Source: Mobula hypostoma (lineage: Eukaryota). From it: a stretch of DNA of 64,000 nt. The stretch lies in contig NC_086097.1 of the NCBI RefSeq assembly GCF_963921235.1, positions 149,050,001-149,114,000 of the forward strand, written 5' to 3'. Below are positions 1,239-59,815 of this stretch, piece by piece. The notes under the pieces are model-generated. The model worked only from the letters and a program-made list of their open reading frames with translations, was not told where the DNA came from and made no database searches. Every line of letters begins with the position of its first letter. Position 1 is the stretch's first letter. Position numbers and translations under genes: made by a program.

Positions 1239-1456
1239 TCACAAACTAGAGAAAATCTGCAGATGCTCGAAATCCATGCAACTCACACAAAATGCTGGAG
1301 GAACTCAGCAGGCCAGGCAGCATCTATGGAAAAGAGTAAACAGGATCCCTTACTTCTCATCTTTTTTCTCCAGTCCTGGTGAAGACTGAAATAGTGACTC
1401 TCTTCCATAGATGTTGCCTGGCCTGCTGAGTTCCTCCAGCATTTTGTGTGAGTTGC
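1239..1456. mobile_element. Short non-coding Penelope-derived inverted-repeat element
   Basis: Arms GCAACTCACACAAAATGCTGGAGGAACTCAGCAGGCCAGGCAGCATCTATGGAA and its reverse complement. Flanked by a 14-bp imperfect TSD: ATAGCTACAACTAA (1225-1238) and ATAGCTATACCTAA (1457-1470). Confidence 0.8.
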
Positions 1457-6276: not shown

Positions 6277-8780
6277 CACAAACATGAGAAAATCTGCAGA
6301 TGCTGGAAATCCAAAGCAACACACACAAGATGCTAGAGGACCTTAGTAGCATTAATGGAAAAGAGTAAACAGTCAATGTTTTGGGCTAAGACCCTTCACG
6401 AGGACTGGAAACGAAGGGGAGAAGTCAGAATAAGAAGATGAGGGAGAGGGGGAGGAAGAAGGTGAAGGTGGCAGGTGATAGGTGAAATCGTGACGGGTAG
6501 GGGTGAATTAAAGAGCTGTGAAGTTGATTGCTGGAAGAGATAAGGAGCTGGGGAAGGGGGAATCTGATTGGAGATGGCAGAAGGCCACGGAAGAAAGGGA
6601 AACGGGAGGAGCACCAGAGGATGGTGATGGGCAGGTAAGGAGAGAGAGGGCGTGAGAGGGAAACACAAAGGCGTAACATTGAAGGAGAGGAGGGGGGCCA
6701 TTACTGAAAGTTTGAGAAATCGATGTTCATGCCATCAAGTTGGAGGCTACCCAGACAGAATACAAGATGTTGCTCATCTAACCTGAGTGTGGCCTCATTA
6801 CAGCAGTAGCAGAGGCCACGGACTGACATGTCGGAATGGGAAGTAGAATTGAAATGGGTGGCCACTGGGAAATCCTGCGTTTTCTGCCAGAAGGAGCATT
6901 GGTGCTCAGCAAAGTGGTCTCCCAATCTACGTCATTTCTCACCAGTATACAGGAGGCCACACCGGGAGCACCAGACATAGTAGCTGACCCCAGCAGACTC
7001 ACAGGTGAAGTGTCGCCTCACCTAAAGGAACTGTCTGGGGCCCTGAATGATAATGAGGGAGGAGGCGTAGGGGCAAGTATGGTACTTGTTCCGCTTGCAA
7101 GGATAAGTGCCAGGAGGGAGATAAGTGGGGAAGGACAAGAAGACAAAGGAGTCTTTTGGGGAGTGATTCCTGTGGAAATAGGTGGAGGGGGAGGAAAGAT
7201 GTGCTTGGTGGTGGGATTCTTTTGAGGATAGCGCAAGTTATGGAGAATTATGTGCTGGATGCGGAGGGTTGTGGGGTGGTAGATGAGGACAAGAGGAATC
7301 TTATCCTTGACGTGGGAGGAGGATGAGATGAGGGCAGATGTGCATAAAATGGAAGAGATGTGGTGAGGGCAGCGTTGATGTTGGAGGAAGGGAAACTACT
7401 TTCTTTGAAGGAGAAGGAGATCTCAGTTGTTCTGGAATGAAAAGGTTCACCTTGAGAGCAGATGCTGCAGAGACAGAGAAACTGAGGAAAAAAGAATGCC
7501 ATTTTTACAAGTGACAGGGTAAGAAGAGGTATAGTCCAGATAGCTGTGAGTGAGAGTCAGTGGGTTTATAAAACATATCAGTAGATAGATGATCTCCAGA
7601 GATGGAGACAGAGAGATTGAGGAAGGGGAGAGATGCGTCAGAAATGGACCAAGTAAATTTGAGGGCAGGGTGGAAGTTGGAGGCAAAATTGATGAAGTTG
7701 ACAAGCTCAGCATGGGTGCAGAAAACCGCACCAATGCAGTCATCAGTGTAGTGTAGGAGGAATTACCGAGTGATGCCAGTGTAGGCTTGGAACATGAACT
7801 GCTCCACATAGCTGACGAAAAGGTAGGCTTGGCTGGGACCCATCCGAGTGCCCATGGCGAAACCTAGGGTTTGAAGGAAGTGGGAGGAGTCGAAGGAGAA
7901 ATTGTTGAGGGTGAGGACCAGTTCAAATGGAGGAGAGTGGTGGTGGATGAGAACTAGTTGGGTCTGTTGTCCAGAAGAAACAAGGAGTTTTGATGGGGGT
8001 GGAAGTGTACAGGAACTGGGCATCCATAGTGAAAATGAGAAGGTTGGGGGCAGGGAACTTTGAAGTTGTTGATAAGATCGAGAGCGTGTTAAATGTCATG
8101 GATGTTGGTAGGAAGAGACTGAACCATGGGGTATAAAACAAAGTTGATATATGCAGTCACAAGTTCTGTGGGCAGGAGCAGGCAGAAACAAATGGCCCCA
8201 CTGAACCCTCTCTCACTGCTCCCCCTCTGTGATCTCCGACTCTTCGACCAGATCCTCACCCAGACCCACTAGCACAGAAACAATGGGTCAGGTTTGTGAA
8301 TCTTGGATAGGAGGTAGAAGCACGAGGTGCTGGTAAGGGATCTGTGAAGTTGATGGTAGTGGACAGGAGATCCTCAGTCAATGAGGTTGTTGATGGTGTG
8401 GCTGATAATGGCCTGATGTTCCTTAGTGGATCCTGTTCAAGAGATAAGTAAGACCAAGTGTCTGAAAGTTGCCACCTGGCCTCAGCAAGGTAGAGGTCAG
8501 CCCCCCCAGACTACAACAGCACCTCCTTTATCTGCGGGTTTGATGGTGAGGTTGGGATTAGCGCGGAGAGAGTGGAGAGCAGGCTGTTCCAAGGGAGAGG
8601 CGTTAGAGTTAGAGAGAATGTTAAAGCCGAGATGGTTGCTGTCTCATCAGTAGTTAGCGGTTTAAAAAGATTCAGAGGAGGCAGAAGACCAGAGTGGGAT
8701 GTCCCAGAAGAAGAGGAGGAGGGTTGAATGTGGGAGAAGGTGTCATCAGTGCGGGTAGGGGAGTCCTCGCCAAAGAACGC
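6277..8780 (-). mobile_element. Penelope-like element (RT + GIY-YIG endonuclease + 3' pseudo-LTR), degenerate
   Basis: Minus-strand fragments give LIFTMDAQFLYTS, ELVLTLNNFSFDSSHFLQTLGFAMGTRMGPS, LHYTDDCIG (YxDD), DSHSYLDYTSS-like and GDHFAEH...PVATHFNS...GMNIDFSNF (GIY-YIG C-terminus). The terminal repeat at 6277-6700 matches the other PLE copies. Confidence 0.88.
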
Positions 8781-11034: not shown

Positions 11035-11549
11035 GTTTTGAGTGATTATGGACTAAATACAGCCAAATGGAACTTGCTTAGATAGGCAACTTGGCCAGCA
11101 TGAATTACTGTATTACTTATATAGAAGTTGAGAAGTTATATAGAGTGCATATCAGATAATAACTATGTTTTGAATTTCATTGATTGGAATCACATGAAAA
11201 TGTAGTGGAACAAGGAGTTCTATTTAGACATTGTCACTGAAATGTAGAGCAAAACTCTTGGTTTTGTATTAAATCACAAACTGTGCAATAATTTAACATT
11301 TTGATTTTTCACATCGGGTATTTCAAATGTGCCAATTTATAGATCACTGTTTAATCTGCATTTTATTCCTGCTAGAAACTCAGAAAGAAATAATAGTACA
11401 AAAAAACCTTGTAATAGGCCATTTGCCCTATTCTGTCCATCCTAGCTCTTTGAAATGGCTGTCCAGTTTAATGTTGCACCCAAAACTTCTCACTCTAACT
11501 TTGTAAGTCCTCTTGAAAGTCATTCTGAGGGTAAGTTCATTAAATAGTG

Positions 11550-11641
11550 ACGAAGGGTCTCGGCCTGAAACGTCGACTGCGCCTCTTCCTATAGATGCTG
11601 CTTGGCCTGCTGCGTTCACCAGCAACCTTGATGTATGTTGT
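11550..11641 (+). mobile_element. 92-bp Penelope terminal fragment with a 5'-truncated hammerhead motif
   Basis: Near-identical to 44300-44390. Flanked by a perfect 14-bp TSD TTCATTAAATAGTG (11536-11549, 11642-11655). Confidence 0.9.
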
Positions 11642-12360
11642 TTCATTAAATAGTGTATCAGTTACATGGGATTGATTGACAGCCTCCAGCATTTGATTCT
11701 TATGTTCTAATTTCCAAAAAGCGAATTAAACTGTTCTGCATATGTATATTGTATAAATGTGTTCATTTGAAAGAGTAAGGTGAGGATATATTGCAATGTG
11801 AAGAACAGGAGAAAAATTATCAAATCATGTAAAGTCACTATCTTCTCACCATTGCTTTATTTAGCTATCCTGTACTAAATCTTGATCAACAGGAGCATAT
11901 TAGAAGCACCATTGAATATTATGACTTTAATTTGTCAGTCTGTGTTTTCTTCTCTAACAAGTTTAAACACTGGAAGTTCAGACTTAGTTGGAATTCTTCT
12001 TGTGTTCCTCAATCCTTTATTTCTGCCTAAGCAGATATAATTGCACCTAGAAGCCACTTTGTTGGCTTTCTTTGTAAGTTTCCAACAAGCTATAAAAAGA
12101 TATTCTACCTGATTCTATTTTTTATTCTAACTCCCACATTGTGTTCAATGACACTTGGGTTGTTTCCCAGTGTGCCTAGATAAACCTTGTGAATTTACTC
12201 TGTTGCTTTGGATATCTTAAAATTGCCTTTCCACAAAAAACAAACTTAACTTCCTTATAATTTGCTTACAGTTAAATTTATCATAAACTACATTAATTGC
12301 TCACCTCCAAAAACATTTATATCTTTCCTCTAATTAGGTGATCTGACTGTGTATAGTGTT

Positions 12361-26554: not shown

Positions 26555-27626
26555 AGTGGGAATAAACGGGACCTTTTCAGAATGGCAGGCGGTGACTAGT
26601 GGGGTACCGCAAGGCTCAGTGCTGGGACCCCAGTTGTTTACAATATATATTAATGACTTGGATGAGGGAATTAAATGCAGCATCTCCAAGTTTGCGGATG
26701 ACACGAAGCTGGGTGGCAGTGTTAGCAGTGAGGAGGATGCTAAGAGGATGCAGGGTGACTTGGATAGGTTGGGTGAGTGGGCAAACTCATGGCAGATGCA
26801 ATTTAATGTGGATAAATGTGAAGTTATCCACTTTGGTGGCAAAAATAGGAAAACAGATTATTATCTGAATGGTGGCCGATTAGGAAAAGGGGAGGTGCAA
26901 CGAGACCTGGGTGTCATTATACACCAGTCATTGAAAGTGGGCATGCAGGTACAGCAGGCGGTGAAAAAGGCGAACGGTATGCTGGCATTTATAGCGAGAG
27001 GATTCGAGTACAGGAGCAGGGAGGTACTACTGCAGTTGTACAAGGCCTTGGTGAGACCACACCTGGAGTATTGTGTGCAGTTTTGGTCCCCTAATCTGAG
27101 GAAAGACATCTTTGCCATAGAGGGAGTACAAAGAAGGTTCACCAGATTGATTCCTGGGATGGCAGGTCTTTCATATGAAGAAAGACTGGATGAACTGGGC
27201 TTGTACTCGTTGGAATTTAGAAGATTGAGGGGGGATCTGATTGAAACGTATAAGATCCTAAAGGGATTGGACAGGCTAGATGCGGGAAGATTGTTCCCGA
27301 TGTTGGGGAGGTCTAGAACGAGGGGTCACAGTTTGAGGATAGAGGGGAAGCCTTTTAGGACCGAGGTTGGGAAAAACTTCTTCACACAGAGAGTGGTGAA
27401 TCTGTGGAATTCTCTGCCACAGCAAACTGTTGAGGCCAGTTCATTAGCTATGTTTAAAAGGAAGTTAGATATGGCCCTTGTGGCTACAGGGGTCAGGGGG
27501 TATGGAGGGAAGGCTGGGTTCTGAGTTGGATGATCAGCCATGATCATAATAAATGGCGGTGCAGGCTCGAAGGGCCGAATGGCCTACTCCTGCACCTATT
27601 TTCTATGTTTCCTATTTTCTATGTTT
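26555..27626 (+). mobile_element. Young CR1 LINE copy A, 5'-truncated, open ORF2 3' part
   Basis: Uninterrupted RT C-terminal ORF to 27524 (SGVPQGSVLGP, KFADDTK), with 3' tail CTATGTTT repeats. Possible 4-bp TSD CACT (26551-26554, 27627-27630). Confidence 0.95.
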
Positions 27627-28790: not shown

Positions 28791-29979
28791 GGATTTTCAA
28801 AAGGCTTTTGACAAGGTCCCACATAGGAGATTAGTGTGCAAACTTAAAGCACACGGTATTGGGGGTAAGGTATTGGTGTGGGTGGAGAATTGGTTAGCAG
28901 ACAGGAAGCAAAGAGTGGGAATAAACGGGACCTTTTCAGAATGGCAGGCGGTGACTAGTGGGGTACCGCAAGGCTCAGTGCTGGGACCCCAGTTGTTTAC
29001 AATATATATTAATGACTTGGATGAGGGAATTAAATGCAGCATCTCCAAGTTTGCGGATGACACGAAGCTGGGTGGCAGTGTTAGCAGTGAGGAGGATGCT
29101 AAGAGGATGCAGGGTGACTTGGATAGGTTGGGTGAGTGGGCAAACTCATGGCAGATGCAATTTAATGTGGATAAATGTGAAGTTATCCACTTTGGTGGCA
29201 AAAATAGGAAAACAGATTATTATCTGAATGGTGGCCGATTAGGAAAAGGGGAGGTGCAACGAGACCTGGGTGTCATTATACACCAGTCATTGAAAGTGGG
29301 CATGCAGGTACAGCAGGCGGTGAAAAAGGCGAACGGTATGCTGGCATTTATAGCGAGAGGATTCGAGTACAGGAGCAGGGAGGTACTACTGCAGTTGTAC
29401 AAGGCCTTGGTGAGACCACACCTGGAGTATTGTGTGCAGTTTTGGTCCCCTAATCTGAGGAAAGACATCTTTGCCATAGAGGGAGTACAAAGAAGGTTCA
29501 CCAGATTGATTCCTGGGATGGCAGGTCTTTCATATGAAGAAAGACTGGATGAACTGGGCTTGTACTCGTTGGAATTTAGAAGATTGAGGGGGGATCTGAT
29601 TGAAACGTATAAGATCCTAAAGGGATTGGACAGGCTAGATGCAGGAAGATTGTTCCCGATGTTGGGGAGGTCTAGAACGAGGGGTCACAGTTTGAGGATA
29701 GAGGGGAAGCCTTTTAGGACCGAGATTAGGAAAAACTTCTTCACACAGAGAGTGGTGAATCTGTGGAATTCTCTGCCACAGCAAACTGTTGAGGCCAGTT
29801 CATTAGCTATGTTTAAAAGGAAGTTAGATATGGCCCTTGTGGCTACAGGGGTCAGGGGGTATGGAGGGAAGGCTGGGTTCTGAGTTGGATGATCAGCCAT
29901 GATCATAATAAATGGCGGTGCAGGCTCGAAGGGCCGAATGGCCTACTCCTGCACCTATTTTCTATGTTTCTATGTTTCT
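28791..29979 (+). mobile_element. Young CR1 LINE copy B, 5'-truncated, open ORF2 3' part
   Basis: ORF 28777-29883 (DFQKAFDKVPH...), with tail (CTATGTTT)2. Possible 5-bp TSD AATAT (28786-28790, 29980-29984). Confidence 0.95.
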
Positions 29980-39100: not shown

Positions 39101-40825
39101 GTTATCAAAGCAGGGGCCCTGAGTTGCAAGATGAGGCAGTCAGCAATCAGAGGGATTCAAATACTATTATTGGTAATACAGAGCATCCTGCAAGTGGACA
39201 TATACTACACGTAAGGGTCTTCTGTGGTTTGCAGGCAGCCTAACTCCCTATGTTACAAACAGGAATAATTTCAGAAAAATAGTTAAAATATTTAAAGCTA
39301 TTTCTCATGAGTTTCATTTTTTGATATTAAACTAGAAATTACTGCCATAGACTGTCGAATGTTTAACATCTTTGTTGGACAGCCTTCTGTGTACTAGGTT
39401 TAATGAAGACTATTTTTATGAAGGTTAACACCTTTGTGAAACTTATGAGGAAAGAAATGTCATCAAGTATTGATGCCATGGATAACTTTTAAGAAATAGT
39501 ATTTTTATTCATTTGGTCAATTTGCTCCGTTTCTCGAAATTTGGTTGATGGAAGAAAAAGACAGTTGTTAACTTGGTTTGCCTTCTGCCATCCTGGAAGT
39601 TCCATGGTACACAGTGAACTGAGCAGCATCTATGGAGGAAGGGAGATGGTCAACAATTCTGGACTGATGTAGGGTTTTAACCTGCAACATAAATCATCAC
39701 TCTATTTCCACAGATGCTGTGTGACCTTCTGAGTTGCTCCAGCACTTTGACTTTTGCTACTGTTACTCATGCATGAGGCTGAAAAAAAACTCTAGTGATG
39801 GGAAAGGGATGGATGTACATGTAATTTCCAGTATGAAGCAGATTACTAGTTAACCAGGAAAGCTGGTTCTTCACAGTACCATTGTAGTTTCCCTGCTGCT
39901 GTGGCTAGATAACATGACCCTGATCTAGAGCTTCCTAATTTCAATGCCTGAGACTCAAAATTAGCAGTTCCTTTAACATTAGGAATGAATCTGTTATCTC
40001 TATCTAATCCCTAGCCTCTGATACTCTTAAATCTGAGGGAATTTAAAAAAGGAAAGATGAACTTGCAAACAGGGAGCATTAGAATGTATCCAGCCACATT
40101 AATACATGATAAAGGTTGCACACCATCTAAAAAGGCACAGATCTGCTCTGTGTCAGAGATGGTTTGCACAAGGATCAGGTAGTGTACTCAAAATCAGCTG
40201 CTTCCTGATTTGGCAACTCTGGGTTATTCTTCTGGATGTTCCACAAAAGTCACCTGCTTCCTGCTATAATTCATTAAAGATGCTCATTGTTCACCTGTTG
40301 GCATGACAACCTAAATACTCAATGGCTTAGCCACAGGCAGATCAAGTAGGTCACAAGCCAGATCTACACATTTGAAAAATAAGCTACTGCTGAACAGGTT
40401 GGAAGCAAAGTTTACCACATTAACCTCCAACTCATGGGTTAGGGTGAGGGTTAAAAACGCGCAGGGTTGTCCTTGTTATTCAATAATGCCTAGAAGAAAT
40501 GCATGTCATTGGGACCACAGTGGCTTAAATTGGGATTATTATTTCCAACAGTAATTATATTGATCGCCAATGGGAGTGACAACTCTAATTCAAACAAATG
40601 ATTGGATCTGAATCATCTAAGGGACAAATGTAGCTTCTAGCAAGGAATTAGGAATTCCCTATAGTTCAATGAATTCAATGGAGAGATTCCTTGTTACTTA
40701 AAGGTTAATTTTTTTGTCTGTTCTGTTTATTGTTTTCTCCTCCTCACCAAACTTTCTCTGTCTTACATTTATTCATGTAGGATAATAAAGAAATTGTTAA
40801 ATTTAAACGTTTTATTAAGAACTTG

Positions 40826-41094: not shown

Positions 41095-43247
41095 TTTTAT
41101 TAAGAACTTGGAGTGCATGATCATGCAAACAAAACCAACCTCCCAAAACTGCATTCAGAAGACATTCTCACCTGAGTCAGATAATTCTGTCTTCAAGTTG
41201 AACTCAAAAAAAAACTTCAATACGTAATTTACATTGATTTTCCAGTACAGTATGTTGACTGAGCCCTCACTCAGATGAAGCATTAAAGTAAGGTCCTGTC
41301 TGGCTTCTTAGGTTGAGTAAAAATTCACCCGGTGTCATTTTGTAGAAGATCTTGGGTATATCACTCTTGTGGTTTATATGTCCCTAAAGCTACATGAGGA
41401 AAATTGATTATCTGCTCTTTATTTCATTTCCCTATGTGGGATTACACACTGCATAAATCAGCTGCCACATTTCATAGACTATAAAGTACTTTGGAATGTC
41501 CTGAGATTGTCAAAAATCTCATTTAAATGCATATTTTTCTCAGCCCCACTGTTAAGCCTTCTCATGCTGTCCCTTTTCAAACTGATGCAAAAACTGTGAA
41601 ATGATGGTATCTCTTTAAATTGTAGGAAAACTCCCCTATAAGCTCTGAGGATAATTTTAGAATCAAGTTTGCACTGAGCCAAGCAGATCAGGACTAGCCT
41701 ATGTTCTGCCCAAAACTTGCACTAAACAATAGCTGGAACATAATCATTACAACCTGCTTACATACAAATTAGACTGGAGATTGTTAGGATATGATTTGTG
41801 ATGGCAATTCTTTCTGTAACTGAGAAACCTCGTGACACTCGGCATTAAGACGGATATCGAGTGCTAAAGTTAAACACTACCAGGGCTGAAGCAGTAAAAA
41901 AAACTGTTCCATTTACTGACCTCAATCCTAGATTCTAAACATTGCATTAATATGAATTTTTCCAGTTTGTGCACAGTCCTCTGAGACTAACCAAGGTAAT
42001 CTTTATCGTGTATTTATGTATTTCAGAGTTTTTATCACATTAAATTTGGCATGATTCAAACCCTTGCTTCTTTGGGGTAGACTTAATCTATTGCATCATA
42101 CCAACTAATCCATTAGCAACAATCCGTTTATAAAGATGAAAAAATTAATTGAGAGTTTTACTTAAATTGAAAGCATTTAAATATGTATAAAACTAGGTGA
42201 TGAAATTTTGAGACTCTCCCTGAAGCCCGATCTATTCACGGCACTAGCCCACAGTCACATATGGTTCTCACTTGATTTGCTTTCTTCATATGCCAGGCAC
42301 TGCTGGCATTGCTTGTTTCTTCCACCCTCTCCCCACCCCCCCAACTCCTCTACTTCCCACTGCCTTTCCGAGAAGGCTGCCTGCTACCTTGAGGATGATT
42401 GTAGAGGCTCTCATTTAAGTGGTGATCCTGCATTTCAGTCTTATTGCTGAGTGTCACGGGGTTTCTAAGTTATAGGAATGATCACTACAAAGCCTAATCG
42501 TGTCCTAATCATCAACAGATTAACTCTCATGTTAGTAGCTTGCAACGATGGGCAGGAGAATCTGAAATTAAAACAGAAAATGCACGTTGGGTAACAAATA
42601 TTTTCAATAGCACTTCCCCACAAGGCTGTGTCCTTAGTCTTCTGCTCTACCCACAGCAATGTGTCCAGATCCCGATCTAACTCCATCTACAACTTTGCAT
42701 AGTGGGCTGTATCTCAAATAATGATGAGTTGGAGTAAAGGCAGAGCTTGGTGATAGGGTGTCATGACAGCAAAACAAAAGGGCTTGTCATTAACTTCAGG
42801 GAGGGGTGTGATGCGCATGCTCCTGTCTCCATCAACAGTGCTGAGGTTGAGAGCTTCATGCTCCGAGGAATGAAAATAAATCATTTACATATTACTTCTT
42901 TCCTTTATAGTTACCGTACACTGAGTGGCTACTTTATGAGATACCTCCTCCACCTAATAAAGTGGCCACTGAGTGTATGTTTGTGATCTTTTGCTGCTGT
43001 AGCCCATCCACTTCAAGGTTCAATGTGTTGTGCATTCAGAGATGCTCATCTGAACACCACTGTTGTAACATATGGTTATTTGAGTTACTGTTCCCTTCCT
43101 GACAGTTTGAACCAGTATGGCTGTTCTTTGCTGACTCTCTCATTAGCAAAAACAACAGGAATTCTGCAGATGCTGGAAATTCAAGCAACACACATCAAAG
43201 TTGCTGGTGAACGCAGCAGGCCAGGCAGCATCTATAGGAAGAGGCGC

Positions 43248-43283
43248 AGTCGACGTTTCAGGCCGAGACCCTTCGTCAGGACT
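43248..43283 (-). ncRNA. Minimal type I hammerhead ribozyme motif (Penelope-associated)
   Basis: Minus strand AGUC-CUGACGA-A-GGGU CUCG GCCU-GAAA-CG-UC-GACU: conserved core, stem I AGUC/GACU, stem II, palindromic ACGU in place of stem III, and a GUC cleavage triplet. Confidence 0.8.
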
Positions 43284-44292
43284 AACTGAAGGAAGAGTGA
43301 GTAAGGGATTTGAAAGCTGGAGGGGGAGGGGGAGATCCAAAATGATAGGAGAAGACAGGAGGGGGAGGGATGGAGCCGAGAGCTGGACAGGTGATAGGCA
43401 GAAGGGGATACGAGAGGATCATGGGACAGGAGGTCCGGGAAGAAAGACGGGGGGGGGGGGTGACCCAGAGGATGGGCAAGAGGTATATTCAGAGGGACAG
43501 AGGGAGAAAAAGGAGAGTGAGAGAAAGAATGTGTGCATAAAAAAGAGTAACAGATGGGGTACGAGGGGGAGGTGGGGCCTAGCGGAAGTTAGAGAAGTCA
43601 ATGTTCATGCCATCAGGTTGGAGGCTACCCATACGGAATATAAGGTGTTGGGCCCCAAACAGTCCTTCCAGGTGAGGCATCACTTCACCTGTGAGTCGAC
43701 TGGGGTGATATACTGCATCCGGTGCTCCCGATGTGGCCTTTTATATATTGGTGAGACCCGACGCAGACTGGGAGACCGCTTCGCTGAACATCTACGCTCT
43801 GTCTGCCAGAGAAAGCAGGATCTCCCAGTGGCCACACATTTTAATTCCACATCCCATTCCCATTCTGACATGTCTATCCACGGCCTCCTCTACTGTAAAG
43901 ATGAAGCCACACTCAGGTTGGAGGAACAACACCTTATATTCCGTCTGGGTAGCCTCCAACCTGATGGCATGAACATTGACTTCTCTAACTTCCGCTAGGC
44001 CCCACCTCCCCCTCGTACCCCATCTGTTACTCTTTTTTATACACACATTCTTTCTCTCACTCTCCTTTTTCTCCCTCTGTCCCTCTGAATATACCTCTTG
44101 CCCATCCTCTGGGTCACCCCCCCCCCCGTCTTTCTTCCCGGACGTCCTGTCCCATGATCCTCTCGTATCCCCTTCTGCCTATCACCTGTCCAGCTCTCGG
44201 CTCCATCCCTCCCCCTCCTGTCTTCTCCTATCATTTTGGATCTCCCCCTCCCCCTCCAGCTTTCAAATCCCTTACTCACTCTTCCTTCAGTT

Positions 44293-44328
44293 AGTCCTGA
44301 CGAAGGGTCTCGGCTTGAAACGTCGACT
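44293..44328 (+). ncRNA. Minimal type I hammerhead ribozyme motif (Penelope-associated)
   Basis: AGTC CTGACGA A GGGT CTCG GCTT GAAA CG TC GACT. Stem II is weakened by a C>T change. Predicted cleavage is after 44324. Confidence 0.75.
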
Positions 44329-45134
44329 GCGCCTCTTCCTATAGATGCTGCCTGGCCTGCTGCGTTCACCAGCAACTTTGATGTGTGTTGCTCTCATTAA
44401 CAAGCTGTTTTCTCCCATTGAACTGATGTTGAGTATATTTTTTTTTTCTTTTTCACGCCATTCTCTATATACTCTGGAGAGTTGGTGTGAAAATCCAGGA
44501 GATCAACAGTTTCTGAAATACTCAAACTACGCTGTCTGGCACCAACAATCATTCCACGGTCAAAATCACTTGGATCACATTTCTTCCCCATTCTGATGTT
44601 TGGTCTGAACAACAACTGAACCTCTTGACCACATCTGCATGCTTTTATGTGGTGTTGCTGCCTCATAACTGAATGATTAGTTGTTTGAATTAATGAGCAG
44701 GTATACAGGTGTACAATAAAATAGGTACAGAGTGTATTTTAATTTTTCTTCCATATCTGTTTCCTTCTGAAATTGTCTAAGCTAATAAGTTACTAATTGT
44801 GGTACTGAGCTCCACTCTCTAACCACTACCTGAGGAAAGTTATTTTTTCTAGTTGCTTGAAATGTATTCCCTGTAAAAACAGAGGCCACAGATTTACTAA
44901 AAGATATAGGGAAATTATAGAAAGTATCTTTACTCAGATAGTGGTTATAGAGTGTGGAATACCATACCTCATTAAATAATTAAACAATTAGAGGTTTGCA
45001 AGGGTCGAATTGTATTCTTCAGATCTACCTTGCCAATCTATTCAAAATATTCATTTTTGTTCCATCTTAAATTATGGCCATTCAAAATTTCAGCTGTTAA
45101 GAAAATTGGTATGTGGGATAAGTTATTTAAACAA

Positions 45135-46149: not shown

Positions 46150-46352
46150 TGGAGGCACAAGAAATTGCCGATGCTGGAATCTGGGTCAACACAAAAGGAT
46201 CTGGAGGAACTCTGAGGATCAGACAGCAACTATGGATGGAATTGAATGATGAGTACAGATGAAGGGTCCTGCCCCAAAATGTCGACTGTACATTTCCCTC
46301 CATTGATGCTGGCTGACCTGCTGAGTTCCTCCAGTGCCTTTTGTGTTGCTCC
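46150..46352. mobile_element. Degenerate Penelope-derived inverted-repeat element
   Basis: Same terminal sequences as 1239-1456, with a decayed hammerhead-like core CAGATGAAGGG...CCCAAAATGTCGACT. Confidence 0.65.
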
Positions 46353-47563: not shown

Positions 47564-49009
47564 GAAAGATGTTGCCCTTGGTTGAAAAGTCTAGAATAAA
47601 TTGGAGATTATGGGGCAAGAAGTTTAAGGCTAGGGTGAGGGAAAAAGACACTGATGAACCTGTGGAATTAATGCCGATGGGCCTGTGCTGAATAAATTTA
47701 AGAAGAAGATTTATATATTTATAAATATAAATGGGATCAAGAGGTTTGAAAGAGACCTGTAATATGGCATTAAGATAGAGCAAGCTGCAAAATCAAATAG
47801 CCTATAGCTGCTGCTATTTCCTGTGTATTCATGGTATGTCCCATATTTATCAGGTGAAATGAGGTTAGTGGGCATTTTGGAATTGGTCCTCTCACTCTAG
47901 AATAAGATTTAATGAGGAAATGTTAGTGACTGCCTATAGAGCTGTAAGGATTCCTATACTTAATTTTCTGATGGGTGGTTACCAGTGATTACCCTAACAC
48001 AGTTTAAAATCGGAGACTTCATGGAGACTAGAAGTTGCTCAGGAAGCTCTGGCAAACTTCCTGATCTGGAATTTTTGAAGAGACTGCAGCAGGAGGTTTT
48101 CTCCATTGACCTGGAACAATTTTGAAATGCTCAGGATATTTCTGGTAGAAGTGTTATGGTACATTTGTGATGTCCTGACGCAGAATCTCATTCCGAAATG
48201 TCAACAATTCTATTCCCCCACAGATGCTTCTCGACCCACTGAGTTCTGCCAGCAGTTTGTGTTTTGCTCCATGTTCTTGCAGCCAAAATCTCTTGAGTCT
48301 CTATTCATTATGTTTTGAGAGCTTTGAAAACTTGCTAATCTAAGAGCCACAGCTTATCCAGCTGTTAAAAGTTCTTTAAACTATTTCATAAACAAGCTTG
48401 TAAATGTTTAGCTCTTGTGCCTGTGATTAGCTCACTGCTGGCTGTAATGTAAACAATGCCCGTTTTCCTGATGCCACACCCCATGTACTGTAGCCTTACA
48501 GCAGTTTAATAAAAATGTGAAAATATTTACACAGAATAACTATAACAATGCAACCGGTCATTTTCTTACCAGTGGAAATCCATGCGGGATCCCACAACTT
48601 TAGTGGTAACACTTGCTGCAACTTCTGAAAGGGAAAGTTCTACAAGGTGAATGTAAAATCTTTCTGTGGGTTATTGGCAAATGTTATCAGCTCATCACTG
48701 ACTACAAATTCTGGTCCATAATATTTTACCTTTTCACCTTCATAATATCAATTATTAGTGTATCCGCAGCATCATGTAACTATGCCCTGTTTCTTGTGAT
48801 TTTCAGCATAAAGAAAAGATTTGCACCACATCTAAAGATAGAGGGTATGATCACAATTTACAAAGCTTTACATTGGGAGATCCGATGAATGATAGGGACA
48901 AAGAATTCCTTGCGAAACAAACATTAAGAATTTGCAGAGTCAAAAGCTATATTGTTATTCACTCCAAGTGTACAATAACTTGAAAATGTTCCTTTTCTTT
49001 TTTATTTAG

Positions 49010-49159
49010 TTGACATACGGGAAATTAAGGAAATTCGACCTGGGAAGAACTCAAAAGATTTTGAGCGTTATCCAGATGAAGCACGGAAACTGGATAGCAA
49101 CCTGTGTTTTGTCATTCTCTATGGAATGGAATTCAGACTGAAAACACTAAGCGTTTCAG
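49010..49159 (+). CDS. PLCG1: Internal coding exon of a phospholipase C-gamma (PLCG1-like), N-terminal PH domain
   Basis: Polypyrimidine tract plus AG at 49008-49009 and GTAAAT donor at 49160. The 150 nt (phase 1/1) translate [51 protein letters not shown], matching PLCG1 [12 protein letters not shown]...[16 protein letters not shown] from memory. The family call is strong; the exact paralogue is uncertain. The exon is absent from the ORF track. Confidence 0.9.
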
Positions 49160-51176: not shown

Positions 51177-51608
51177 AACACAAAATACTCTGCAGATGCT
51201 GGGGTCAAAGGAACACTCACAACATGCTGGAGGAACTCAGCAAGTCAGGCAGCATCCGTGGAAACGATCAGTCAACATTTCGGGCCGGAACCCTTCGTCA
51301 GGACTGAAGAGGGAAAGGGCAGAGGCCCTATAAAGAAGGTGGGGGGAGGGTAGGAAGGAGAAGGCTGGTCACCTTTCCTGCCTATCAGCTCCCTGCTTCC
51401 CCTCCCCCACCCCTTTATCTTTCCCCTTACTGGTTTTTCACCTGATACCTACCAGCCTTCTCCTTCCCACCCTCCCCCCACCTTCTTTATAGGGCCTCTG
51501 CCTCCGCCCTCTTCAGTCCTGACGAAGGGTTGCGGCCCGAAATGTTGACTGATTGTTTCCATGGATGCTGCCCGACCTGCTGAGTTCCTCTAGCGTGTTG
51601 TGAGTGTT
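51177..51608. mobile_element. Non-coding Penelope-derived inverted-repeat element with two hammerhead motifs
   Basis: Arms about 51212-51369 and 51451-51608. Motifs at 51270-51305 (-) and 51515-51550 (+). Perfect 14-bp TSD GACTAGAGATTGGA (51163-51176, 51609-51622). Confidence 0.9.
51515..51550 (+). ncRNA. Minimal hammerhead ribozyme motif (variant; mirror copy at 51270-51305 on the minus strand)
   Basis: AGTC CTGACGA A GGGT TGCG GCCC GAAA TG TT GACT. Stem I extends to TCAGTC/GACTGA. GAAATGTT replaces GAAACGTC. Confidence 0.65.
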
Positions 51609-52556: not shown

Positions 52557-52671
52557 TTTGGTGGAGCATAGGAGGCTGAGGGGTGACCCTGTAGAAGTTT
52601 ATAAAATCATAAGAGGTACATGCAAGGTGAATAGCCAGGGTATAGTGGGGAGTCCAAAACTAGAGGTCATA

Positions 52672-53233
52672 CACTCACTAGCCACTTTATTAGGTGCCTT
52701 TTGTACCAAATGAAGTTTTGCCACTACGTGTATGTTCATGGTTTTCTGCTGTTGTAGCCCATCTACTGCAAGGTTCAACATGTGTGTTCAGAGATACATT
52801 TTCTGCACATCATGTAACACGTGATTATATGAGTTACGTCATCTTGCTGTGAGCTTGAGCCAGTCTGGCCATTCTCCTCGAGCCTCTCCCATTAACTAGG
52901 TGTTTTCGCCCACAAAAATGCCTCTCACTGGATGTTTTCCTTTCTGCACCATTCTCTGTAAACTGTAGAGACTGTTGTGCGTGAAAATCCCAGGAGATCA
53001 GCATTTTCTGATGTATACAGACTGTCCAGTTTGGCACCAACGATCATTCCATGGTCAAAGTCACTTGGATCACATTTCTTCCCCATTATGATGCTTGGTC
53101 TGAATGATAACTGAATCTCTTGCCCAGGTCTGCGTGCTTTTATGCACTGAGTTGCTGCCATTCAATTGGCTGATTAAATATTTGCATTAATGTGCTTATA
53201 TACAGGTGTACCTAATAAAGTGGTCACTGAGTG
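52672..53233 (-). mobile_element. Non-autonomous Tc1-like element inserted in a CR1 remnant
   Basis: TIRs CACTCACTAGCCACTTTATTAGGT / ACCTAATAAAGTGGTCACTGAGTG, with TA duplicated (52670-52671, 53234-53235). Contains an MGKKCDPSDFDHGMIVGA fragment. Confidence 0.9.
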
Positions 53234-53924
53234 TAGGTTTAAAGTGAGAGGGGAAAGAACTTTTTCAAAACAGGGTGGTGAGTATGTGGAATGAGCTGCC
53301 AGAGGTAGACATGAGTACAGTTACCACGTTTAAAAGTGATTTGGACAGTTTGTCAGAATGGATGAATTGTGCTGAAGCACCTTTTTTCTGTGCTGTATAA
53401 CCCAATGACTCTATAAGACGTGCAGCAGGGATTTACCAGGTAATTACCGGCCAAGAAACTTGGAAAGGCTGGGATTAGTATGGAACATTGAGCATGGATT
53501 TGTTGATGGAAGATCCTGTCCAACTAACTTAATTGTTTTTTGAAGAAATTACATATTACAATGAAGAGAACAGTGCAGCTGATACAGTTGGCGTTGTTCA
53601 CTGGTTTGAAAGTTGATCCCATAGGATCCAGCTGGCATGTTGCATCCTAAATTAGCTTGGTAATGTGAGATGGAGAGTGATGGTGCAGAGCTGTTTCTGT
53701 AAGTGGAAGCCTGTGATCAGAACTGTTTCACAGAAATCTGTGTGTTATGTATATTAAAAAATTACTTGGAATGCAAATGCAGGACTAGGATTAAAAAGTC
53801 TGCAAATGATTGAAAAACTGGTGAGGAAGGTAGTGTTAGGCTACAATGAGATATTGATAAATTGGTAAATTAGGCGGAGCACTGACACTGAACTTAAACT
53901 CAATACTTGGAATTCATGTACTCT

Positions 53925-59392: not shown

Positions 59393-59815
59393 CAGGGGTG
59401 CAGTGGTAGCCGCAGTGCTCTGAAACGCGTTCAGCACCTCTTTAAGAAAAAAGCCGAAATAAACAAGCTAATTAATGAGCTGCCGCCCAGGGTGATTTAA
59501 GTATCTCAGGAACTGCTGATCTCCTGGGATTTTTACACACAGCATACTCTGGAGTTTACAGAGAATCCAGCGAGTGGATTTAACACGATGTTTTTGCTCA
59601 CGGAACAGCCGCTCGCTGGATTTTTTTTTGTTTTTGGCACCATTCTCTGTAAACTCCAGAGTATGTTGTGCGTAAATTTCCCAGGAGATCAGCAGTTCCT
59701 GAGATACTTAAATCACTCTGGGCGGCAGCTCATTAATTAGCTTTTTTATTTCGGCTTTTTTCTTAAAGAGGTGCCGAACGTGTTTCAGAGCACTGCGGCT
59801 ACCACTGCACCCCTG
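59393..59815. mobile_element. Palindromic hAT-type MITE with 174-bp arms
   Basis: CAGGGG...CCCCTG termini, arms 59393-59566 and 59642-59815, and a perfect 8-bp TSD ATTGAGAG (59385-59392, 59816-59823). Confidence 0.92.

Follow-up and report, generated by a model that had tools for sequence, protein, structure and literature searches.

The hammerhead motifs in the window (the whole stretch of 64,000 nucleotides analyzed here) are, with good confidence, minimal hammerheads that belong to the terminal repeat of a Penelope-like element (PLE), present here as dead, inverted insertions. The copies that lie within the surrounding PLC-gamma-1-like gene are likely inert, each sense copy among them being predicted to be locked in a hairpin. 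The preliminary description of this DNA had proposed a minimal type I hammerhead in a PLE terminal repeat, with stem III reduced to a palindromic remnant, and both the anatomy of the insertions and the published features of minimal hammerheads (min-HHRs) fit that proposal.

Hammerhead motifs and the insertions that carry them

All five principal copies listed in the preliminary description (43248, 44293, 51270, 51515, and 11548) were recovered in place. An intact minimal hammerhead antisense to the host gene lies at 43248 to 43283 on the minus strand (sequence scan), and an intact sense copy lies at 44293 to 44328 on the plus strand (scan and folding); the two differ by a single base. The pair at 51270 to 51305 (minus strand, antisense) and 51515 to 51550 (plus strand, sense; scan and folding) represents a subfamily variant with two CpG-type changes and 6 differences per copy, including AUGU replacing ACGU and U17 replacing C17. 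The catalytic core (CUGANGA, GAAA, and NUH) is present in all four copies, and the cut sites predicted earlier (after 44324 on the plus strand and between 43252 and 43251 on the minus strand) are consistent with hammerhead numbering. The plus-strand copy at 11548 begins within the catalytic core, so that stem I has no 5′ strand and C3 is missing; it belongs to a young solo stub (11548 to 11643, plus strand) in which a ribozyme fold is impossible.

The five decayed copies on the same list were also found. An ungapped scan recovered three of them, all with a broken core, at 6371 to 6406 (minus strand, in an older PLE copy), 46252 to 46287 (plus strand), and 48171 to 48206 (plus strand). The other two, which are strongly decayed, were visible in gapped alignment only, at 1372 to 1399 (plus strand, with an 8-nt deletion) and at 39663, where the aligned segment spans 39664 to 39690 (plus strand). 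The ungapped scan returned 8 matches at 14 or fewer mismatches, compared with 0.3 per shuffled window, and none of the 50 shuffles contained a match at 12 or fewer. The bare CUGANGA...GAAA pattern showed no excess over chance in the window (7 matches versus 4.59 expected). Comparison with hammerhead models through Rfam did not bear the motif out, as none of the 25 window matches was a hammerhead; the microRNA and RRE matches were due to inverted repeats. The case for a hammerhead therefore stands on the full motif and on covariation.

In the family of the two intact copies (here the focal family), the motif has one unpaired base between positions 9 and 10.1, a G10.1-Y11.1 pair, and a palindromic 15.1-16.1. 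A search with a longer-stem pattern yielded 1,983 matches versus 297 for its control, and these included five further repeat families. At least five older hammerhead families (loci L082 to L110 and L211 to L225) share the core and the palindrome with a 6-bp stem II and other stems, and several of them also occur as head-to-head pairs. Among 23 copies of the six families, hand-picked by eye with picks favoring a paired stem II, 159 of 184 stem cells were paired, compared with 50% when strands were swapped between families. Majority pairs were kept across the six families in 43 of 48 cases, a score reached by 1 of 720 family permutations, while stem I alone was weaker (20 of 24; 6 of 720 permutations) and poor in one family. 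These stem pairs were counted by script from anchors, as the MAFFT alignment put one row and, in the family with the short stem, stem II out of place.

No covariation was detected within the focal family. Among 30 loci drawn from 1,050 double-mutant matches, pair 10.2-11.2 was kept in 2 and pair 2.2-1.2 in 3, and the changes represent uncompensated decay, as expected since the copies are dead. The most frequent changes among 134 genic copies fall at CpG positions. The stem covariation anticipated in the preliminary description is thus found across families and is missing within this one. The five other families may likewise be PLEs: one lead in the atlas points to GIY-YIG (0.85), none of five upstream ORF pieces matched Pfam, and BLASTP gave a blank result. 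Endonuclease-like motifs were noted by eye in L090, L095, L098, and L105.

The pair at 43248 and 44293 sits in one young insertion (43146 to 44391), which consists of a 5′-truncated PLE with an inverted truncated copy on its 5′ side, arranged head-to-head with the 3′ ends outward. The arms are 98.9% identical over 467 nt, and the whole is bounded on the plus strand by target-site duplications of 8 bp (9 including a shared C) at 43138 to 43145 and 44392 to 44399. From left to right, the insertion comprises a 38-nt PLE tail on the left arm only (43146 to 43183, minus strand), the left arm itself, which is an inverted copy of the element's 3′ end (43184 to 43650, minus strand), a C-terminal PLE ORF remnant encoding a GIY-YIG endonuclease without reverse transcriptase (RT) (43642 to 43998, plus strand; Pfam PF01541, E value 2.1e-5, above the cut-off), and the right arm with the ORF end and the 3′ UTR or pseudo-LTR (43927 to 44391, plus strand). 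On the plus strand the GIY-YIG C-terminus ends in a stop at 43998; next come a 3′ region rich in pyrimidines and the hammerhead, past which the element continues for 63 bases. The hammerhead at 44293 lies 295 nt past that stop, within the pseudo-LTR and on the strand of the PLE ORF.

An inverted truncated partner together with a tail of 30 to 40 bp on one end is described as the PLE signature (PMC8557442), and a tail has also been described for the PLE in PMC11167929. The RT and the linker have been lost from the window copy. Sister copies carry in-frame RT motifs upstream of the endonuclease (L008, L021, and L028, read by eye) or a CX4CxxC linker preceding it (L001, L009, L011, and L026). A CX2-5CxxC linker between RT and endonuclease is given as a mark of Neptune and Nematis (PMC8557442), and being common to both, it would fit either clade alike for the focal element. 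A second, older inverted PLE stub occupies 51212 to 51608, with arms at 51212 to 51369 and 51451 to 51608 that are 92% complementary.

Other repeats were noted in the window. Both flanks of the insertion at 43146 to 44391 match one older repeat that was interrupted by the PLE and that recurs at 52670 to 53235. This landing-site family has terminal inverted repeats and is represented at 42914 to 42980, 44490 to 44649, 52670 to 53235, and 59393 to 59815, the last being an inverted pair of the repeat (174 nt, 95%). An older and longer PLE copy at 6370 to 8100 (minus strand) retains RT and endonuclease remnants, is about 79% identical to the focal element, and has a broken hammerhead core. Two LINE reverse-transcriptase fragments (26555 to 27607 and 28914 to 29966), 2,359 nt apart, are identical over at least 300 nt and represent either a recent duplication or an assembly repeat.

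The motif in the element's own cycle

Copy ends were mapped in 1.264 Mb. All 17 young copies that span the cut site end past it, by 64 to 77 nt without the tail or by 95 to 106 nt with the tail; none of the 17 ends at the cut site, and none of 32 young copies begins there. Because no copy ends or begins at the cut site, the integrated copies must derive from RNA that was uncut at the hammerhead. Truncated young copies start inside the motif or at its 5′ edge in 11 of 20 cases (one more, at a block edge, was left uncounted). The copy ends of the focal family agree with those reported for the anole PLE PAc, in which reverse transcription starts at two internal sites and no RNA-seq read ends at the cut site (PMC11167929). 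The hammerhead of PAc cleaves only with the element's protein, and its mutants still insert in vitro (PMC11167929). Hammerhead monomers of other PLEs are reported to be inactive and dimers weak (PMC4209133), and one of nine Xenopus dimers is reported to cleave (10.64898/2026.07.22.740005).

We infer that selection maintains the motif solely in master elements that transpose. There it would work on the tandem RNA of the element itself, in dimeric form or assisted by the element's protein, both of which have been shown for other PLEs. In dispersed copies the motif would have no role. An alternative that we consider unlikely, yet the strongest of its competitors, is that even the master elements carry a motif that has lost its ribozyme activity and is retained as a structural signal for protein binding, for the start or stop of reverse transcription, or for splicing. 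The origin of integrated copies from RNA uncut at the site, the 11 of 20 truncated copies whose start falls within the motif or at its 5′ edge, and the insertion of hammerhead mutants in vitro all speak for a structural signal, as do an active fold far off the predicted minimum, dimers included, and the spread of Naiad PLEs without a hammerhead (PMC8557442). However, the catalytic positions and the NUH triplet are common to six families with differing stems (in a search whose pattern required the core), and related motifs cleave in vitro (PMC4209133, PMC11167929). Cleavage of the tandem RNA of master elements is the reading that we prefer.

A pyrimidine tract ending in CAG, which resembles a splice acceptor, adjoins helix I at 44270 to 44292. 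The young solo copies L012, L132, L143, and L182 start 1 to 2 nt past this CAG, and 3 of the 20 truncated copies in the unbiased set do so. An intron of the Drosophila Penelope element is reported to end at helix I (PMC4209133). No spliced retrocopies were found among all fetched loci, where the one split alignment (L208) lies away from the candidate acceptor.

Intronic copies and the host pre-mRNA

The host gene and its strand had been read correctly in the preliminary description. Coding exon 2 of a PLC-gamma-1-like gene lies at 49010 to 49159 (plus strand) and matches PLC-gamma-1 best, with 61.6 bits compared with 45.4 to PLC-gamma-2. Coding exon 1 is located at C1:148,982.8-148,983.0 kb, with its end at C1:148,983,012, exon 3 is located at C1:149,126.4 kb, and PLC-X exons follow further downstream on the strand of exon 2. 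The copies, which had been assigned to one PLC-gamma intron, are indeed intronic but are divided between two introns: the inverted pair 43248/44293 is in coding intron 1 (116 kb), 4.7 kb before exon 2, and the inverted pair 51270/51515 is in intron 2. Near-perfect long hairpins in the pre-mRNA are found on both sides of exon 2 (43184 to 44392 and 51212 to 51608) and are likely substrates of A-to-I editing.

The presence of such copies in this gene is not unusual. In the 3.48-Gb genome, the 34-place pattern gave 53,422 exact matches (one per 65 kb) and the core-plus-stem-II pattern gave 122,113 core-intact matches (one per 28 kb), while the reversed control patterns gave 0 matches in both searches. 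Neighbor pairs within 4 kb numbered 14 among the first 100 exact matches (8 head-to-head, 3 tail-to-tail, and 3 same-strand), and 3 of 30 sampled loci had a same-strand neighbor within 1.5 kb. With core-intact copies at a density of one per 28 kb, several should occur by expectation in an intron of 116 kb, and the genome-wide abundance combined with opposite-strand pairing makes it an expected outcome that a large intron carries copies on both of its strands.

Folding predictions argue against activity of the paired copies. The 44293 copy is predicted to pair over 36 of 36 nt with its own upstream antisense arm (43248 to 43283), and the 51515 copy over 35 of 36 nt with its own; the 36-nt duplex is predicted at -73.6 kcal/mol. 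Double-hammerhead folds reach -3.9 (44293), -9.5 (43248), and -9.8 (51515) kcal/mol, compared with -23.1 to -31.1 kcal/mol for inactive dimers, and a fold of 44293 in which only helices I and II form is given a probability of 0.0002. These are equilibrium predictions, the energies leave out tertiary contacts, and RNA editing or helicases could open the duplex. Cutting by a monomer is unlikely since it is unable to close stem III. The core-intact sense copies in the 264 kb around the window are 44293, 51515, and C1:148,998,284, and the nearest same-strand intact partner of 44293 is 7.2 kb off and itself hairpin-locked. During transcription of the PLC-gamma gene, the antisense arm would emerge about 1 kb ahead of the sense hammerhead, and the emerging sense motif would zip into a duplex of about 465 bp instead of folding. 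The sense copies are thus likely inert, given the long hairpin that each is predicted to form with its antisense arm. The inserted copy would be a passenger that decays, fastest at CpGs. Evidence to the contrary comes from the solo intact sense copy at C1:148,998,284 (L036:8284, plus strand), which lies in the same PLC-gamma intron 96 kb upstream and, with no inverted partner within 1.5 kb, is free of a hairpin lock over that distance. If any copy is active, this one is a more promising candidate than the pair at 43248 and 44293.

Strand bias was examined in 1.224 Mb within PLC and laminin-G (neurexin-like) genes, with gene spans inferred from domain matches and some blocks past the outermost matched exon assumed to be genic. 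The 134 copies in this sample are divided into 64 sense and 70 antisense, with 20 and 13 core-intact (p 0.30) and 9 and 6 fully intact, respectively. With the window excluded, the core-intact copies number 18 sense and 11 antisense, and the exact matches 6 and 1, including 5 solo sense copies. No sense-strand depletion was observed in this 1.224 Mb, where a 2:1 antisense bias was rejected (p 0.0012) in what is a small test. Intact copies on both strands are about half as dense in the genic sample as genome-wide (9 versus 19.4 expected; 20 versus 44.4), which could reflect selection against genic copies that is not strand-specific. Intact genic copies at first seemed to have inverted partners more often than expected (11/15 versus 28/119, p 0.0002), but this difference disappeared once a single pattern and a single distance were used and the window was excluded (2/7 versus 7/30, p 1.0), and it was discarded.

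Taken against these results, the earlier proposal that plus-strand copies would cut the host pre-mRNA is without support. It is very unlikely that sense copies cut the PLC-gamma pre-mRNA cotranscriptionally, through dimers in cis or trans or with help from the PLE protein, and thereby affect splicing or output. In its favor, the 44293 copy retains an intact core, palindrome, and pair of stems, and lies 4.7 kb ahead of the exon 2 acceptor. A ribozyme of a different class, located in an intron, has been reported to affect its host gene (PMC10919898), and a related hammerhead is switched on in vitro by PLE protein (PMC11167929). These points are outweighed by the predicted full pairing of 44293 with its antisense arm, the distance to a same-strand intact copy that is itself locked, the absence of a sense-strand deficit, and the youth of the insertion, which, with arms 98.9% identical, is no old conserved host element. 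Since intact minimal hammerheads occur once per 65 kb and solo sense copies are tolerated in introns, one could also imagine, as a long shot, a dormant ribozyme pool, tens of thousands of sites strong, which the PLE protein would switch on in trans upon derepression of the element, so that many host pre-mRNAs would be cut at once; the inverted arm would exempt roughly one-quarter of the copies. Inert passenger copies remain our favored interpretation for this gene.

Relation to described hammerhead elements

The focal family closely resembles the min-HHRs of metazoan PLEs, including the fish elements Xena, Poseidon, and Neptune (Cervera and De la Pena 2014, PMC4209133). The core, the 4-bp helix I, the unpaired base 9/10.1, the G10.1-Y11.1 pair, and the palindromic 15.1-16.1 that replaces helix III are the same as in that description, as are the location in the pseudo-LTR and the occurrence mostly as solo copies with some opposite-strand pairs (published as 100 to 700 bp apart). 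Helix II has 4 bp in the focal family and 7 to 8 bp in Schistosoma (PMC4209133), and the 53,422 exact or 122,113 core-intact copies compare with about 4,000 in coelacanth and about 9,000 in Xenopus, counted there under different search rules (PMC4209133). A chance hammerhead look-alike multiplied by transposition is hardly credible and, judged from the sequences, is largely refuted by the cross-family covariation: the bare core is unenriched in the window, Rfam finds no hammerhead, and high copy number proves nothing by itself, but compensatory changes occur across families in both stems, the published description is matched in its additional base following A9, in G10.1-Y11.1, and in the palindrome, and the motif is positioned in the pseudo-LTR.

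Neptune-type PLEs (Craig et al. 2021, PMC8557442) share the C-terminal GIY-YIG, the linker (in sister copies), the inverted truncated partner, and the tail on one end, whereas the window copy has neither RT nor linker. The anole Poseidon element PAc (Frangieh et al. 2024, PMC11167929) likewise carries its hammerhead in the pseudo-LTR, and its copies end at two sites further downstream, with and without a tail, instead of at the cut site; it belongs to another clade, however, and its ORF starts in stem II, where the focal family has no ATG. Animal non-LTR retrozymes (PMC7229834; 10.64898/2026.07.22.740005) are also described as repeats with type I hammerheads, akin to the ends of PLEs and in many cases located in introns. 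Retrozymes are noncoding head-to-tail tandems, while the focal element is an inverted, ORF-bearing stub with a same-strand neighbor at 3 of 30 loci, and a retrozyme identity for 43146 to 44391 was rejected on its inverted layout and ORF remnant. The conserved intronic hammerheads of amniotes, RECK and others (PMC6155905), are similarly type I, intronic, and sense to the gene. They are described as few, conserved across species, and equipped with tertiary loops, in contrast to the focal copy, which is young, one among tens of thousands, and devoid of loop 1 and helix III. Domestication of the RECK type was rejected for the insertion given its youth, its intact target-site duplication, and 53,422 near-identical copies.

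Min-HHRs have been reported in fish Neptune and Poseidon elements (PMC4209133), with no cartilaginous fish named in the passages and supplementary files of that study that were covered. The axolotl is credited with 126,247 hammerhead motifs (PMC7229834; 10.64898/2026.07.22.740005). In Xenopus tropicalis, about 44% (43.9%) of the hammerhead repeats derived from PLEs overlap with introns, according to a survey that includes one sampled chondrichthyan (10.64898/2026.07.22.740005). The class, its occurrence in fish, intronic copies, chondrichthyan hammerhead repeats, and six-figure copy numbers are already in print. The preliminary description was right that the class is known, but the intronic context that it held to be possibly new has been published for PLE-derived repeats (10.64898/2026.07.22.740005). 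No paper describing the focal family was found, and subscription papers, Repbase, or the preprint's supplements may hold it.

The locus itself matters little, since the motif has been described and its copy here is a passenger. The focal family, which is young, numbers more than 50,000 intact copies, and occurs in solo and inverted as well as sense and antisense arrangements, is a usable system for learning what PLE hammerheads do, including whether they cut host RNA in vivo.
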